From IMG/VR virus record IMGVR_UViG_2574180220_000001: a DNA stretch of 15,630 nt; one strand, given 5' to 3'. How positions within the stretch are numbered: the stretch's first letter is position 1; each line of letters begins with the position of its first letter. The notes under the pieces are model-generated. The model was not told the origin of the DNA, did not search any database, and saw nothing but the letters and a program-made list of their open reading frames with translations. The stretch comes from a virus. Taxonomy: Duplodnaviria > Heunggongvirae > Uroviricota > Caudoviricetes. The position numbers and the translations under genes were made by a program. This document shows, piece after piece, positions 1,324 through 15,630 of this stretch.

Positions 1324-1418
1324 GAAGCCTGCTTTTTTATACTAAGTTGGCATTATAAAAAAGCATTGCTTATCAATTTGTTGCAACGAACAGGTCACTA
1401 TCAGTCAAAATAAAATCA
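1324..1418. other. Prophage attL (B-O-P'): lambda core GCTTTTTTATACTAA at 1331-1345 followed by the P' arm with Int arm-type sites and an IHF site
   Basis: Seen directly: 15-bp lambda att core, then GTTGGCATTATAAAAAAGCATTGCTTATCAATTTGTTGCAACGAACAGGTCACTATCAGTCAAAATAAAATCATTAT, matching the lambda P' arm; it abuts the 3' end of int. Confidence 0.9.
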
Positions 1419-4625: not shown

Positions 4626-4758
4626 TTTTTGGGACTCCTGGCTGATTAAGTATGTCGATAAGGCGTTTCCATCCGTCACGTAATTTACGGGTGATTCGTT
4701 CAAGTAAAGATTCGGAAGGGCAGCCAGCAACAGGCCACCCTGCAATGGCATATTGCAT
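4594..4758 (-). CDS. cIII: CIII (FtsH/HflB inhibitor), 54 aa
   Basis: Hand-translated [54 protein letters not shown] with AAGGAG Shine-Dalgarno; below the ORF-track size cutoff. Confidence 0.9.
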   Translation of the reverse strand: MQYAIAGWPVAGCPSESLLERITRKLRDGWKRLIDILNQPGVPKNGSNTYGYPD

Positions 4759-4785
4759 GGTGTGCTCCTTATTTATACATAACGA

Positions 4786-5381: not shown

Positions 5382-5582
5382 TCAGGCAGCTTTGTTGTTC
5401 TGTTTACCAAGTTCTCTGGCAATCATTGCCGTCGTTCGTATTGCCCATTTATCGACATATTTCCCATCATCCATTACAGGAAACATTTCTTCAGGCTTAA
5501 CCATGCATTCCGATTGCAGCTTGCATCCATTGCATCGCTTGAATTGTCCACACCATTGATTTTTATCAATAGTCGTAGTCAT
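5382..5582 (-). CDS. ral: Ral (restriction alleviation protein), 66 aa
   Basis: MTTTIDKNQWCGQFKRCNGCKLQSECMVKPEEMFPVMDDGKYVDKWAIRTTAMIARELGKQNNKAA matches lambda Ral; 183-bp spacing to ea10 as in lambda. Confidence 0.92.
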   Translation of the reverse strand: MTTTIDKNQWCGQFKRCNGCKLQSECMVKPEEMFPVMDDGKYVDKWAIRTTAMIARELGKQNNKAA

Positions 5583-6097: not shown

Positions 6098-7180
6098 TTA
6101 GAACTGGTAAACCATACCTACAGCAACGATATCATCGGTAGCAACGCCAGATGCTTTCGTGAAATCGCTCTTATCAATCAGGTTGATTTTGTAGTCAACA
6201 AAAGTGGACATATTTTTGTTGAAGTAATAGGTTGCACCTACATCAACATATTCAACCAGGTCCTGATCACCCCAAACACCCAAGTCTTTTCCTTTAGAAT
6301 GCAGGTAAGCAACGGATGGACGCAGGCCGAAGTCGAACTGATATTGTGCAACAGCTTCGAAGTTTTGTGCTTTGTTGGCAATATGGTTATTACCAAAAAC
6401 AGTCATGTTCTGGGTTTCAGAATAGGTGGTAGCCAGATAGATGTTGTTCGCATCATATTTCAGACCAGCTGCCCATACTTCAGCATTTTGACCAGAAGCA
6501 TTCAGACCGTTGTTACCGTAGATAACCTGATTATTAGTGCGATCAGATTTAGCATAGGTTGCACCCACGCCGAATCCTTCATACTCATAAGTAGTTGAGA
6601 AACCGAAACCATCGCCATTAGCTTCAGTTACTTCATTTCGGTCATTTTTGCCCTGATACTGAGCTGCAAAGTTCAGGCCATCAACCAGACCAAAGAAGTC
6701 GTTGTTACGATAAGTTGCAACACCTGTGGTGCGACCAGTCATGAATACATCTGTTTGGGTCCAGGTATCGCCACCGAATTCTGGCAGAACGTCGGTCCAT
6801 GCACCGATGTCGTATGCTACACCGTAGTTACGGCCGTAATCGATGGAGCCGTAGTCACCGAATTTCAGGCCAGCGAAGGCAAGACGGGTTTTATCTTTGG
6901 AGGAACCTTGAGATTCAGCGCGGTTGCCTTTGAATTCATATTCCCACTGACCGAAACCAGTCAGTTGATCGTTGATTTGGGTTTCACCTTTGAAGCCAAG
7001 ACGGGCATAAGTAGTATCACCATCATCTGCATCATTAGAGGAGAAGTAGTGCTTGGCATTAACTTTCCCGTACAGATCCAGCTTGTTACTGTCTTTATTA
7101 TAAATTTCAGCTGCCTGAGCAGACATCGCCATCAGTACTGATGCAGCTACAGCAGAAATTGCCACTGTTAATTTTTTCAT
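6098..7180 (-). CDS. nmpC: OmpC-family general porin, prophage-encoded NmpC/Lc-like, intact (360 aa)
   Basis: Signal peptide [23 protein letters not shown], porin motifs ([57 protein letters not shown]), C-terminal VYQF. Position between Q and the holin matches the lc/nmpC moron of PA-2/DLP12. Confidence 0.85.
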
Positions 7181-11205: not shown

Positions 11206-11775
11206 ATGGAAGTCAACAAAAAGCAGCTGGCTGACATTTTCGGTGCGAGTATCCGTACCATTCAGAACTGGCAGGAACAGGGAATGCCCGTTCTGCGAGG
11301 CGGTGGCAAGGGTAATGAGGTGCTTTATGACTCTGCCGCCGTCATAAAATGGTATGCCGAAAGGGATGCTGAAATTGAGAACGAAAAGCTGCGCCGGGAG
11401 GTTGAAGAACTGCGGCAGGCCAGCGAGGCAGATCTCCAGCCAGGGACTATTGAGTACGAACGCCATCGACTTACGCGTGCGCAGGCCGACGCACAGGAAC
11501 TGAAGAATGCCAGAGACTCCGCTGAAGTGGTGGAAACCGCATTCTGTACTTTCGTGTTGTCGCGGATCGCAGGTGAAATTGCCAGTATTCTCGACGGGAT
11601 CCCCCTGTCGGTGCAGCGGCGTTTTCCGGAACTGGAAAACCGACATGTTGATTTCCTGAAACGGGATATCATCAAAGCCATGAACAAAGCAGCCGCGCTG
11701 GATGAACTGATAACGGGGCTAAAGCGCAGGCGCTCACTATCAACAAGGATGAGGTTAACTCAACTGTTGATTTAA
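11206..11775 (+). CDS. nu1: Terminase small subunit Nu1 with its C-terminus replaced (first ~170 aa lambda-like, last ~19 aa unrelated)
   Basis: MEVNKKQLADIFGASIRTIQNWQEQGMPVLRGGGKGNEVLYDSAAVIKWY... matches lambda Nu1 up to ...KAMNKAAALDELI, then diverges (TGLKRRRSLSTRMRLTQLLI); no terminase large subunit gene follows. Confidence 0.85.
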   Translation: MEVNKKQLADIFGASIRTIQNWQEQGMPVLRGGGKGNEVLYDSAAVIKWYAERDAEIENEKLRREVEELRQASEADLQPGTIEYERHRLTRAQADAQELKNARDSAEVVETAFCTFVLSRIAGEIASILDGIPLSVQRRFPELENRHVDFLKRDIIKAMNKAAALDELITGLKRRRSLSTRMRLTQLLI

Positions 11776-12428
11776 CTCTTACAAAACAAACAGGGACTGG
11801 AAATCGTTTTGTTTTACAGAACTTAGGTAATACAGAACTATCATTTGCCGCAAAAGTATGGGGATCAAGTGATCGACAAAACGTTTTTGAGGTTGGAACG
11901 TCTGCTGCGTATCTGTTTTATGCGCAAAAAACGTCAGCAGGCCAGTTGTTTGATGTAAATGGCGCTATTAATTGCACAACGCTGAATCAGTCATCAGACC
12001 GCGACCTTAAAGACGATATTCTCGTTATCAGCGACGCGACGAAAGCAATCCGTAAAATGAACGGATACACCTACACGCTCAGGGAAAACGGGATGCCTTA
12101 TGCTGGCGTTATTGCACAGGAAGTAATGGAGGCGATACCAGAAGCTGTGGGATCGTTTACTCATTACGGTGAAGAGTTGCAGGGACCAACGGTTGACGGC
12201 AATGAATTACGTGAAGAAACACGTTATCTGAATGTTGACTACGCCGCCGTGACGGGGTTACTTGTTCAGGTCGCCCGTGAAACAGATGGTCGCGTTACCG
12301 CGCTGGAAGAGGAAAACATAACGCTACGTAAAAATCTGGCAACAGCAGGCACCCGGATCAGCACTCTGGAAAATCAGGTAAGCGAACTGGTTGCACTTGT
12401 CCGGCAGTTAACAGGAAGCGAACATTGA
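11706..12428 (+). pseudogene. C-terminal fragment of a tail fibre / tailspike gene carrying a peptidase S74-type intramolecular chaperone domain; no own start at the junction
   Basis: Frame is open from the nu1 junction; contains the autoproteolysis-type motif SSDRDLKDDI followed by NGYTYTLRENGMPYAGVIAQEVMEAIPEAV and a C-terminal coiled-coil-like segment. Track reports only the Met-initiated part, 11946..12428. Confidence 0.6.
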
Positions 12429-12473
12429 TATCCTTCAAGCCCTGAAGGAGGCTGTTCCCGGTACGTTCAGACT

Positions 12474-12608
12474 GTTGTTGGGCTGGAGATCGCAACGGAG
12501 GAAGAAAACTCGTTGCTGGAAGCCTGGAAAAAGTATCGGGTGTTGCTGAACCGTGTTAATACAACAACTGCACCGGATATTGAATGGCCAGTAGCACCTA
12601 TAGGGTAA
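12474..12608 (+). pseudogene. 3' fragment of a tail-fibre assembly gene (Tfa-like C-terminus), no start codon
   Basis: Hand-translated: ...[41 protein letters not shown], resembling the conserved Tfa C-terminus (lambda Tfa ends ...[26 protein letters not shown]... as I recall); same frame as the preceding ORF, directly after its stop. Confidence 0.6.
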
Positions 12609-12692
12609 ATTCGTAATGATTACCTAAATACGTTATTCTTTTGTTCAAAAAGTGATTTTGCTATAGGTAGGGAGTATGTTCTTGGATTAAGA

Positions 12693-12724
12693 ATAAAAAA
12701 TCGCCATGAAAGAGCTTCATGGCG
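12693..12724 (-). terminator. Hairpin with U-tract on the minus strand (CGCCAUGAA-loop-UUCAUGGCG then AUUUUUU)
   Basis: Seen in sequence: 9-bp stem followed by a T-run on the minus strand, inside the AT-rich non-coding region; no obvious upstream minus-strand gene. Confidence 0.3.
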
Positions 12725-13467
12725 AGTACATAAACGTACAAAATGTGATGAAAGTAGAGTGGCGTAAGCCACTATATTAAGATATGACAATAGCGAAGAA
12801 AAGTAAATAACATTTTATGGACGTTTAATTGTTAATTATAAAAACTAGAGTGCCCGATATTGTTTATCTTGCTTTAAAATAATGTACTCAAACCAAATTT
12901 TTGAGCTAAAAGCTCAAATAATATAAATGCAATGATAATGTTTAATAAGACAATTAGCTTGCTTTGTATTTTCATTTCGGAATACTGTTAAGTAACTTTG
13001 ATGACCCTAACAATAGATCGGAATTTTCTTAGGGTCAATGGTCAATGTTTTTGCTTGCAAAGCAAATGTTTTGGTGGTTATAAGTTGTCTTAATATAGTC
13101 ACGCATGCAACTTGTTCCATGCGGAGATTAAAGATTGGAATATAACGCGAAGATGGAATTAAATTACATTTGCAATAACCAATTTATTATTACTCAATAA
13201 TTACCGATATTATTATTGTAAATTAATCATTAGAGTGCAAAAAGAAATGTAACGGCAAAATAAGAGGACGATAGCTGAGAAAAAAGCGTGCTTTCCCAAT
13301 CTGGGGCAAATCACGTCTGAATGACACCTGAAAACAGGTGGTAGCCTCAAGAAGGCTTGGAATATTCTTCTTTAATGTTATGTAATTCATTGATTTTTCG
13401 TGTACGATTTTAAGACATTTATTCCAAGAAAAATTTTTAACTCTTTGATTTTTCGACTCTGTATCAT

Positions 13468-13529
13468 CGGTCTCGAAAACCGGAGTAGGGGCAACTCTAC
13501 CGGGGGTTCAAATCCCCCTCTCTCCGCCA
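13468..13529 (+). tRNA. Partial tRNA-Ser (CGA anticodon; serU-like) 3' portion only (anticodon arm, variable arm, T-arm, acceptor 3' strand, CCA); 5' part absent
   Basis: GGTCTCGAAAACCGGAGTAGGGGCAACTCTACCGGGGGTTCAAATCCCCCTCTCTCCGCCA matches the 3' two-thirds of E. coli tRNA-Ser(CGA) as I recall it; upstream sequence cannot pair to form the acceptor or D arms. Confidence 0.7.
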
Positions 13530-14104
13530 CTTTATCAATGACTTATCTCCCGACTTCCCGCCTTGCTTTTCCTAAACAGAACAATCGTAGAATATTCTTG
13601 AAGGGTTAGATCGTCACTGTTTTCTGTTCGATACTGTGACATTCAGCACTTGATTCGCTATGGATCTGACAGGAAGGTTTTGAGCGAAAATTTGCAGTTA
13701 TTCAGTTGTTTTCTTATCGGTCACCATTATTCTTTTAGACATTGATCCTACAAAGCTGCCGCAAAGTTGGTGGTGGGAACTGAAGTTGCGTAGAGAAGGG
13801 GTCAATACCCGGAGGCAAACATGGGCTGGCAAAAGTGTAGCGGTATTAGGCGCAGCTATTTAGCCTAGTTATGTTTTATGAAAACTTGATATCATATAAG
13901 TGTCTTACTTATTGGCTGTAAATAAGTTTTTCCTAAGGAATTGTTTCTTGAGTATCATTTGTAACTGTAACGGAATTTATAATCCTTTGCTTTATTGTTA
14001 CGGTATTTTTTATCACACCCTATTTTTTATGTGGTTTTTTATACTGAAGTTTGGCAAAGTGAACTTTATATGCATATACTTCATCCTGGTTTCAGTTAAG
14101 TTGG

Positions 14105-14857
14105 GTGGATGATATGGCAACTACATGTTCAGTTATATTGATTTTGGAGTCCTTTGATGTTTATTTCGGAAAAGAGAGTGTGTTTCTGGAGAGAGGTTCA
14201 TCTGTACTTGTCGACTCTAGCTCTAGAGATTTTTTCCTGACATATCCTGAAAGAGTGATAGTGGCGGATTTTGGCGCTGAGTTTATTAGTCGCTATTTGA
14301 AAGCTAATAACTTAAGGGATATTTCTGATTGTAGGGAATATCCATCTTATTTAAAAATAAACTTTGCTGACTTCAGTTTAATTAAAGGATTAATTAGTTG
14401 GGCTAATCACTGTGCTGAATACATAGAAATTTTTGATGAGTCTATTGCTTTTACATGTCTCTCTGCATTTTCTTCTGAAAAACAATTTGGAGTATTTCTG
14501 TTTGAATGTTTGAAAAGCACAGGGGCTAAAGTTAAAACGATTATTCATACGGATTTATCTGCACCATGGCGTCTTAAGGATATATCATCAAGATTATATC
14601 TCAGCGAAAGTTTACTAAAGAGGAAATTGAAAGAAGAGGGGGTATCATTCAGTAAGATCATACTTGATGAGAGGATGCAAATGGCTGAATATTTACTCAG
14701 CACTCGTTGTTATCCTATTAGTAAAGTAGCTAAGGTCTGTGGTTATGCCAGTGTTTCATACTTTACTTATGTATTTAGACGTTATTTTGGTGTTTCTCCA
14801 AGTCAATACTCTCAGAGCAGTTCAGAAAGTAAAATTCTTACTCACCAGGGAATCTGA
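14105..14857 (+). CDS. AraC/XylS-family transcriptional regulator (YdeO/AppY/GadX-like), 250 aa
   Basis: C-terminal double helix-turn-helix region (PWRLKDISSRLYLSESLLKRKLKEEGVSFSKIILDERMQMAEYLL...VAKVCGYASVSYFTYVFRRYFGVSPSQY) typical of AraC family; AT-rich codon usage consistent with horizontally acquired DNA. Confidence 0.85.
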   Translation: MDDMATTCSVILILESFDVYFGKESVFLERGSSVLVDSSSRDFFLTYPERVIVADFGAEFISRYLKANNLRDISDCREYPSYLKINFADFSLIKGLISWANHCAEYIEIFDESIAFTCLSAFSSEKQFGVFLFECLKSTGAKVKTIIHTDLSAPWRLKDISSRLYLSESLLKRKLKEEGVSFSKIILDERMQMAEYLLSTRCYPISKVAKVCGYASVSYFTYVFRRYFGVSPSQYSQSSSESKILTHQGI

Positions 14858-15351
14858 TCATTGTTCTTGCCCCCTTATTTCCAGACAGGGGGTGTATCTT
14901 AAGTTAACGTTACCCGCTGACGTCGATATTCTCGCGGAGAGCGATAACCCAACGCACTGTGCGGATGGTTTTCATTGTAATGTTCGATCGCCACTGCAAG
15001 ATTATGCAATGCCGTTCTTACATTCGGTTTCGGCATGAACGCGATGTAGTCTTCCTTCATCGTTTTCACGAACCTTTCTGCCATTCCATTACTCTGAGGA
15101 CTGCTGATTGCCGTTGTGCAGGGCTCCAGATTCAACTCTCTGGCGAACTGCCATGTTTCATGCGCTCTATACGCTGAACCGTTATCTGTCAGCCACTGGA
15201 TGGACTGTTCCGGTACTTTATCGCCAAAGCGTTTTTCTATCGCTCCTAACATGACATCCTGCACTGTCGCTTTATCGTAACCTCCCGTGCTTGCGGCCCA
15301 GTCTATGGCTTCACGATCGCAACAGTCCAGGGCGAACGTAACACGCAGTTT
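14858..15351 (-). mobile_element. Truncated IS2-like element (IS3 family): terminal inverted repeat plus the 3' half of orfB
   Basis: Terminal sequence TTGCCCCCTTATTTCCAGACA resembles the IS2 end; minus-strand ORF fragment [24 protein letters not shown]...[50 protein letters not shown]...[14 protein letters not shown] resembles the IS2 OrfB integrase core. The 5' part is cut off at about 15351. Confidence 0.7.
14899..15351 (-). pseudogene. IS3-family (IS2-like) transposase OrfB, C-terminal fragment
   Basis: DDE/rve integrase-core motifs ([25 protein letters not shown]); the frame is open upstream of the reported Met but lacks the N-terminal half. Confidence 0.7.
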
Positions 15352-15630
15352 TGAATCGCCACGGGTTTAACAGACACCTCAGAGTCATTTAAGATGGCTT
15401 AAAGAGAGGTGCCCATGAGCGGTAAGCGTTATCCCGAAGAGTTTAAAACTGAAGCAGTCAAACAGGTTGTTGATCGCGGTTATTCTGTTGCCAGCGTTGC
15501 AACACGTCTCGATATCACCACCCACAGCCTTTATGCCTGGATAAAGAAGTACGGTCCGGATTACTCCACTTTTTCATCAAGCCAATCCGCCCACCACTGC
15601 ATCATTTCTCTGCGCTTATCGAAATACTGA
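15352..15630 (+). mobile_element. Left end of a second IS3-family element (IR beginning TGAATCGCCACGGG) with orfA; continues beyond the window
   Basis: IR-like terminus starting with TGA about 63 bp upstream of an orfA-type ORF; inserted into the IS2-like orfB. Family assignment by general resemblance only. Confidence 0.6.
15415..15630 (+). CDS. IS3-family transposase OrfA (HTH protein), possibly truncated or frameshifted at its C-terminus
   Basis: MSGKRYPEEFKTEAVKQVVDRGYSVASVATRLDITTHSLYAWIKKYGPD... is a typical IS3-family OrfA N-terminus with a helix-turn-helix; ATG at 15415 preceded by AGAGAGG. The tail (YSTFSSSQSAHHCIISLRLSKY) lacks the usual leucine-zipper-like segment. Confidence 0.6.
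   Translation: MSGKRYPEEFKTEAVKQVVDRGYSVASVATRLDITTHSLYAWIKKYGPDYSTFSSSQSAHHCIISLRLSKY

Follow-up and report, generated by a model that had tools for sequence, protein, structure and literature searches.

An orphan serU attR junction carried as phage cargo upstream of an AraC-family regulator in a lambdoid prophage at lambda attB

Non-functional pseudo-tRNA attachment remnants such as pauD, ptwF and pawZ are known from the cryptic prophages of E. coli K-12. The gal and bio transducing phages of lambda arise by aberrant excision and carry a hybrid att site together with adjacent host DNA. At the level of gene content, the prophages of EHEC are known to contribute 'moron' regulators, namely PatE, PsrA and PsrB (PMC10877973). 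Partial 3' tRNA repeats, hybrid att sites in transducing phages and cargo regulators in the b region are each well known; the locus described here combines them. It lies in a stretch of 15,630 nt of Caudoviricetes DNA (IMG/VR record IMGVR_UViG_2574180220_000001), referred to below as the window, for which an original prediction, made from the letters only, had proposed an attachment-site remnant and a rearrangement of the surrounding chromosome.

A serU tRNA half and its flanking sequences

Positions 13468–13529 (+ strand) read CGGTCTCGAAAACCGGAGTAGGGGCAACTCTACCGGGGGTTCAAATCCCCCTCTCTCCGCCA and are identical at 62 of 62 positions to nucleotides 29–90 of serU, the gene for tRNA-Ser(CGA), taking as reference the 90-nt gene of a K-12-like strain. 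The original prediction of an orphan 3' portion of about 62 nt of this tRNA is therefore correct, including its coordinates. On its 5' side the fragment retains four of the five nucleotides of the 5' strand of the anticodon stem and the anticodon loop (CGA at 13474–13476); on its 3' side it retains the variable arm, the T arm (13502–13518), the 3' acceptor strand and CCA. The 5' part of serU is absent, as had been proposed for the acceptor strand and the D arm: the 28 nt before the fragment agree with it at 1 of 28 positions. The suggested search for an intact cloverleaf was run, and ARAGORN called no tRNA gene in the whole window. Rfam at gathering threshold likewise found no tRNA in the window, its sole hit being the lambda cIII thermoregulator, and a more permissive Rfam scan returned weak, partial T-arm-type hits only, all of them below threshold. 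With no complete cloverleaf, 13468–13529 is not a functional tRNA-Ser gene. The RefSeq annotation places no features in the 1-kb stretch around it (13000–14000), and a thrW fragment, sought in the window as well, was not found. Identity to the native serU locus runs on past CCA for 278 bp of downstream spacer (97%); this continuation, which the original prediction had missed, excludes a chance match.

The sequences on either side of the fragment are those of an attR junction. To its left, at 12398–13467 (+ strand), lies the phage-side arm of a serU-integrating lambdoid prophage (arm A), which comprises the last bases of a tail-fibre gene, a tail-fibre-assembly remnant (approximately 12477–12608) and an AT-rich non-coding arm. 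To its right, at 13530–13807 (+ strand), lies the 278-bp native spacer between serU and yodB, collinear with the K-12-like serU locus as far as 13807. The whole of 12398–13807 is 99.2% identical to a remnant at the native serU locus of APEC O78, and 13273–13467 equals the attR arm of a lambdoid serU prophage in strain E2863, where J, lom, the tail fibres and nleC are followed by the arm, the 62 nt and yodB. The last 60 nt of arm A are the same in the window, in E2863 and in the phages ev099 and PhiR70_1 (see below). The junction between arm and fragment is present in 1050 genomes, and in O157:H7 the tccP/espJ prophage in serU ends in a related junction with 93% identity. The fragment had been read as the attachment-site remnant of an element that targets tRNA genes, and this reading is borne out by E2863, whose serU attR matches the fragment and the arm to its left base for base.

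At the opposite end of the E2863 prophage, about 50 kb away, a complete tRNA adjoins an integrase gene and mtfA. This attL tRNA carries the compensatory variable-arm pair G48/C59 in place of A48/T59 and then passes into phage DNA. The phage therefore supplies a new 3' half and displaces the 3' half of the host gene to attR, and the crossover falls within tRNA positions 29–47, that is, in the anticodon stem-loop. The fragment in the window has the host allele, A48/T59, and not the phage allele, G48/C59, and host flank follows it, which identifies it as the half displaced from the host gene (the B' side of attR) and the junction as an attR, not an attP. The far end of the element in the window has neither an attL with a complete tRNA nor a serU-type integrase. 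Because the partner attL and the cognate integrase are both absent from the same element, the site is an orphan, a fossil attR junction of a serU-integrating prophage and not an active one.

Two side observations concern serU itself. In E2863 the attL tRNA-Ser (L017, 16449–16538) differs from the native one by a compensatory change from A-U to G-C in the variable-arm stem, so that the tRNA-Ser(CGA) expressed in lysogens would be a variant completed by the phage. In APEC O78 the native serU locus (L006, NC_020163.1 2794243–2796164) is unusual in that its order is odd and a copy is duplicated: intact serU is followed by 427 bp of downstream flank, by a 1070-bp arm A remnant made up of a tail-fibre end and a tfa remnant, and then by a second 62-nt 3' part of serU, flank and yodB. 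Native flank after an intact serU is not what a simple deletion inside a prophage would produce, and the structure looks like the outcome either of integration by a phage that already bore the tRNA half and flank or of an unequal exchange. This 1.4-kb copy is inverted with respect to the copy in the lambda-attB prophage of the strain and lies about 1.25 Mb away from it.

The carrier prophage and its free relatives

The window is a degraded lambdoid prophage of the ev099/mEp332 type, inserted at lambda attB between ybhC and ybhB. Its left part holds ybhC (1–1284) and then, at 1331–1345 (+ strand), the single exact match in the window to the lambda att core, GCTTTTTTATACTAA, which is the attL that borders the carrier prophage; homology to ev099 starts exactly at this core, corresponding to the attP core of ev099 at 26949. 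A gene for a lambda-type tyrosine integrase of 356 aa follows at 1419–2489 (− strand; present in the ORF list and in the RefSeq annotation of APEC O78), and the int region is 99.5% identical to that of ev099. This integrase, of lambda type and not of serU type, is the only one seen in the window. After the lambda-type int and xis come cIII, an ompC-like porin gene and, further on, lysis genes. On the right, APEC O78 has an att core with one mismatch just before ybhB (L001, 22856–22870), a position that corresponds to about 225 bp past the end of the window. The tRNA fragment had been placed next to a lambda attB prophage; it is in fact enclosed by the prophage, where it shares the interval from the tail-fibre genes to the lambda attR with the regulator gene and the IS remnants.

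The closest complete genomes, those of APEC O78 and its relatives, cover 95% of the window in 3–5 pieces, and no complete E. coli genome among 5426 matches it collinearly from end to end. A deletion joint at 11707–11718 connects the terminase genes (L001, about 13405) directly with the end of a tail-fibre gene (L001, 18708); about 5.3 kb present in APEC O78 are lost between them. Compared with ev099, the window is without nearly all head and tail genes; compared with APEC O78, it is without IS2 and differs in sequence between 3766 and 4475. The lambda cIII thermoregulator RNA (Rfam RF01804, 88.5 bits) is located at 4713–4771 (− strand), before the cIII gene. An OmpC/NmpC-type porin gene (6098–7180, − strand) stands between a Q-like remnant and a lysis cassette with essD, rrrD, rzpD and bor, an arrangement of porin and lysis genes as in K-12 DLP12 and phage ev099.

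In a search of deposited phage genomes, three complete genomes of lambdoid phages, ev099 (NC_049953.1), mEp332 (PV340541.1) and PhiR70_1 (PV340577.1), matched the whole of 12483–15630 at 99% identity. The ev099 genome runs from tail fibre and tfa through arm A, the serU fragment (at 24564), flank and IS end to the AraC gene, the transposase remnants and the lambda attP core at 26949, after which come int and xis. In these free phages the block sits about 2.3 kb upstream of lambda attP. Phage mEp332 is a plaque-forming lambdoid phage with lambda immunity (PMC3442831). The block is thus phage cargo that entered the ybhC–ybhB interval with the phage, and because free phage genomes carry all of it, the rearrangement that had been proposed at this locus is not needed. 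In their makeup these genomes resemble lambda bio phages, as they hold a hybrid att site with contiguous host DNA whose far end is an illegitimate junction (13807/13808).

Structure, distribution and origin of the regulator cassette

The host spacer ends at 13807 and is joined directly to the right-terminal 56 bp, inverted repeat included, of an ISEc33-like element of the IS630 family (13808–13863, + strand, by BLAST to ISEc33). These 56 bp map to the extreme right end of an ISEc33 copy with inverted repeats at L014 899 and 2056; the outer end of the IS abuts the upstream region of the AraC gene, and its interior is joined to the serU spacer. A second terminal inverted repeat and a transposase gene, which would define an element of this family, are missing, so that 13808–13863 is a remnant only. 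Because the breakpoint is internal to the IS, 56 bp from its right end, 13807/13808 reads as an illegitimate junction inside the IS and not as a transposition junction.

The next interval, 13864–14113 (+ strand), is the upstream region of the regulator gene and holds the best sigma-70-like site of the neighbourhood at 14051–14080; this site scores 10 of 12 hexamer matches in the promoter scan, a consensus match obtained with a site count no higher than in shuffled sequences. The gene itself (14114–14857, + strand; RefSeq CDS WP_000246057.1) is a cargo gene for an AraC/XylS-family regulator of YdeO/GadX type, with hits to both YdeO and GadX that remain below the curated cut-offs. The gene lies in an interval, 13467–15335, whose DNA shares 99.25% identity with a prophage at thrW in O157:H7. 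Given this location, and taking OI-8 to be the thrW prophage of O157:H7, the gene is probably the orthologue of patE (z0321). PatE is encoded on OI-8, according to a review (PMC10877973). Downstream lies an IS3-family transposase remnant with an integrase core domain and a missing N-terminus (14899–15351, − strand; BLAST, and a RefSeq pseudogene in APEC O78), within which, at 15335, the block held in common with O157 stops. A second transposase fragment follows at 15415–15561 (+ strand; a RefSeq pseudogene, ev099 26511–26726), and after it, beyond the window, come the lambda P arm and then attR. The stretch 15557–15630, at the right end of the b region, is 89–94% identical to the region of intS (a P4-type integrase) of other strains, among IS remnants, and may be the trace of yet another integration module.

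Of 5426 complete E. coli genomes, 536 contain the junction that joins the serU flank to the IS end. Arm A precedes it, as in the window, in 219 of the 536; in the remaining genomes that were examined it belongs to SfV/e14-like, myovirus-type prophages at thrW (CP-933H of O157:H7, ETEC H10407 and MS 69-1), where pinE and a GIY-YIG gene lie before the cassette, equivalent to 13467–15335 of the window, and the thrW attR lies after it. The counted phage and prophage copies of the flank share 274–278 of 278 positions with the window, as against 268–269 of 278 in the native copies, among which both copies at the serU locus of APEC O78 are included. The flank in mEp332 belongs to the same block with the same breakpoint and has a few differences of its own, and the mismatches to the flank of the native attR of O157 fall within 13677–13755. 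The thrW prophages, CP-933H among them, have the breakpoint and the nine flank substitutions of the window as well. Because breakpoint and substitutions are common to the copies, the sequences indicate that the cassette arose by one capture event. The original prediction that the AraC gene and IS elements travel with the tRNA fragment thus stands, all of them being parts of the same block in these 536 genomes. The accompanying idea that the AraC gene came from an island at serU does not: the gene is joined to the serU sequence through the illegitimate junction in the IS630-family remnant, and none of the 5426 complete E. coli genomes has the regulator at the native locus.

In the thrW prophages another phage arm (arm B), without relation to arm A, stands to the left of the cassette; similarity between the two contexts begins exactly where the tRNA fragment does, at its 5' edge. 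This arm, too, is a genuine serU attR arm: in MB15 and RMDEC332 it runs on into the 62 nt and then through the whole native flank into yodB. Where arm B occurs without the cassette, its natural continuation contains a sequence like the serU anticodon arm. After the GIY-YIG gene, SfV/e14-like phages read GATCGGGTCGGTCTCGAAACCCGTAG where serU has GAACGGACCGGTCTCGAAAACCGGAGTAG (L010, AR_0369, 5400–5440; L008, 20000), and in the MS 69-1 variant the match to serU reaches 5 nt further upstream; by its sequence this looks like a serU-type attP core of SfV/e14-like phages. The presence of one cassette on two unrelated serU arms means that a second event, either an exchange of arms or a second capture, must be assumed. 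Judged on the arm A copies, the exchange point may lie anywhere between approximately 13468 and 13677, a range that fits an integrase route and a homologous one alike.

Forms that could precede the captured state were sought. A query of mtfA, serU, flank and cassette found intact serU followed by the cassette in none of the 5426 complete E. coli genomes; no genome was covered to 80% or more, and all hits start 4–9 nt before the 62-nt block. A query of the cassette with yodB–zinT placed no regulator within about 2 kb of yodB in any of the same 5426 genomes, and an exact-pattern scan of one genome per species (185,579 genomes) gave no copy of the junction. Neither a serU prophage with the regulator past its attR nor a cassette with an intact IS630-family element was found as an intermediate. 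PCP06173 and PI7, which have the regulator without serU flank, were considered as the ancestral state and rejected, the match being cut there by an IS1A insertion. A 64-kb 'plasmid' of MS 69-1 (NZ_CP146678.1, 'plasmid unnamed3'; L008) was considered as a free phage with the cassette and rejected as well, as it also holds chromosomal pao and ecp genes. It contains an SfV-like prophage, the patE cassette, paoABCD and ecpDE; the chromosome of MS 69-1 holds a copy of the cassette too, and the 'plasmid' is probably an assembly artefact or a large excised circle.

The fragment also varies among its carriers. Of 30 IMG/VR viral contigs with the junction, 17 have the fragment intact with arm A or arm B, and 13 are altered: 12 have changes in the T loop, from GGGGGTTCAAAT to GGGGGGGCAAAT or GGGGGGTCAAAT or by a 1-nt deletion (described as TT to GG, T to G, or loss of one nucleotide), and one is truncated to about 25 nt behind unrelated sequence, with the cassette kept. 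In phage mEp332 the second base of the fragment, a stem position, is changed. The predicted fold of the region is unremarkable (z-score −1.9), although the variable arm and the T arm can still fold. No terminator-like site was found in 13468–13863 and no promoter-like site on the + strand in the nearby sequence upstream of the fragment. Taken together, the sequences suggest that the fragment is a neutral, drifting relic that makes no tRNA.

These data were weighed against several other accounts of the locus. A local chromosomal rearrangement, in which a serU island or prophage would have recombined with the lambda-attB prophage of this strain and so brought a piece of the serU locus, along with the AraC gene and IS elements, into the ybhC–ybhB interval, might draw on the near-identical 1.4-kb copy of arm and fragment at serU in APEC O78-type strains, which shows that the homology for such an event exists. 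We regard this account as very improbable and already largely refuted: the identical block, with the same breakpoints, is found beside lambda attP in free phage genomes, it lies between attL and attR with ybhC and ybhB flanking the prophage normally, its flank allele is set apart by 9 of the 278 positions from each of the two native copies that share its genome, and the cassette also occurs in thrW prophages of unrelated lineages. A fragment kept for a role at the RNA level or in transcription, whether as a tRNA-derived small RNA or as an insulator or terminator that separates late transcription of the tail fibres from the regulator gene, would fit its perfect conservation in the window, ev099 and PhiR70_1 and the foldability of the variable and T arms; the modest z-score, the lack of a terminator-like site in 13468–13863 and of a nearby upstream + strand promoter, the 12 of 30 IMG/VR copies with a changed T loop, the copy cut to 25 nt and the stem change in mEp332 make it hardly credible.

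The two arms bear on two further accounts. If the fragment were a functional secondary attachment site, a working attP or attB through which this phage or others could enter serU or serU phages could insert into this prophage, then the joining of the cassette to two genuine serU attR arms exactly at the tRNA fragment would be the expected product of site-specific exchange at the core, and the crossover region in the anticodon stem-loop (13468–13486) is intact in the window. Yet a site with a phage arm only to its left and host flank to its right corresponds to an attR rather than an attP, the incomplete 5' strand of the anticodon stem and the missing upstream B arm fall short of a full attB, only a lambda-type integrase is encoded, and an exchange point at about 13468–13677 fits homologous recombination equally well, so that we consider such a site quite unlikely. 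It is also unlikely that there were two captures, in which the cassette would once have stood 278 bp downstream of serU and a lambdoid and an SfV-like prophage would each have excised aberrantly. Both arms are indeed genuine serU attR arms found at the native locus, and in both contexts the cassette is kept immediately before the att site of the carrier itself; against this stand the absence of intact serU followed by the cassette in all 5426 complete E. coli genomes, the absence of a regulator within about 2 kb of yodB and of the junction from the 185,579 species-representative genomes, and a breakpoint internal to the IS, as expected of a one-off fusion.

We therefore retain as very probable the reading of the locus as a captured fossil serU attR that was brought in by a lambdoid phage. 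Under this reading, a lambdoid phage would have integrated into serU by a crossover in the anticodon stem-loop, so that the 3' half of host serU, along with its downstream DNA, came to lie at the right end of the prophage. The right-end junction, consisting of phage arm, host tRNA half and 278-bp spacer, would then have been captured into a phage genome by illegitimate recombination, with the far end of the captured host DNA fused into an IS630-family element upstream of a patE-type AraC gene. The capture could have proceeded by aberrant excision of the lambda bio type or by a double crossover, one homologous and one illegitimate, with an infecting relative. Its product, the block, now occupies the non-essential 'b region' of ev099/mEp332-like lambdoid phages, where a lambda-type attP and int follow about 2.3 kb further on; later the cassette would have moved between phage families. 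We infer the order of these events, as well as aberrant excision or illegitimate recombination as the mechanism, from the end product only, and hold this specific route, aberrant excision or illegitimate capture, to be reasonably probable. It is conceivable, if doubtful, that the fossil junction has served as a portable recombination handle that shuttles the patE cassette between unrelated phage families. Such a handle would account for the tRNA fragment being the exact point at which arm A and arm B each meet the common cassette; the 62-nt block with its flank is carried by serU prophages of many E. coli strains, and exchange at this block could proceed through a serU-type integrase or through homologous recombination.

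Comparison with known systems

The serU fossil is a real but ordinary att-site relic of modest evolutionary interest, and it leaves the current understanding of phage biology unchanged. Its description mainly tidies annotation, given that the fragment might be taken for the border of a prophage or for a sign of genome rearrangement. It also offers a concrete, datable example of a temperate phage that gains host DNA from its integration site and then swaps its integration module, and it marks the history of the cassette with the probable patE gene, an acid-resistance regulator, which is found in about one tenth of complete E. coli genomes and in at least two phage families. A serU fossil upstream of patE is not mentioned in the literature examined.

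The closest counterparts are the serU-prophage attR junctions of O157:H7 (the tccP/espJ prophage, presumably Sp14/CP-933U) and E2863 (the nleC prophage), which have the same target gene, the same 61–62-nt block starting in the anticodon stem and the same host flank; the arm of E2863 is identical over its last 60 nt and that of O157 is related, the whole junction matching at 93%. Unlike these, the junction in the window is not at serU, has no partner attL and no serU-type integrase, and its flank stops after 278 bp at an IS remnant, inside a lambda-att prophage. With lambda gal and bio phages it shares a hybrid att site contiguous with host DNA from the integration site, an illegitimate end, and its map position in the b region next to att. 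It differs from them in that only 340 bp of host DNA, with no host gene among them, are kept in the block, that the phage remains fully viable with another att–int module, of lambda type, and that the capture event is deduced from its product. Like pauD, ptwF and pawZ, the fragment is a non-functional 3' tRNA copy left by a tRNA-targeting integrase, but those remnants border their own element at the tRNA locus, whereas the fragment in the window has moved to another phage and another locus. As with PatE of EHEC, the AraC gene occupies a cargo position at the end of a prophage, in a block 99.25% identical to that of the O157:H7 thrW prophage; unlike there, the carrier here is a lambda-attB phage and not a thrW prophage.
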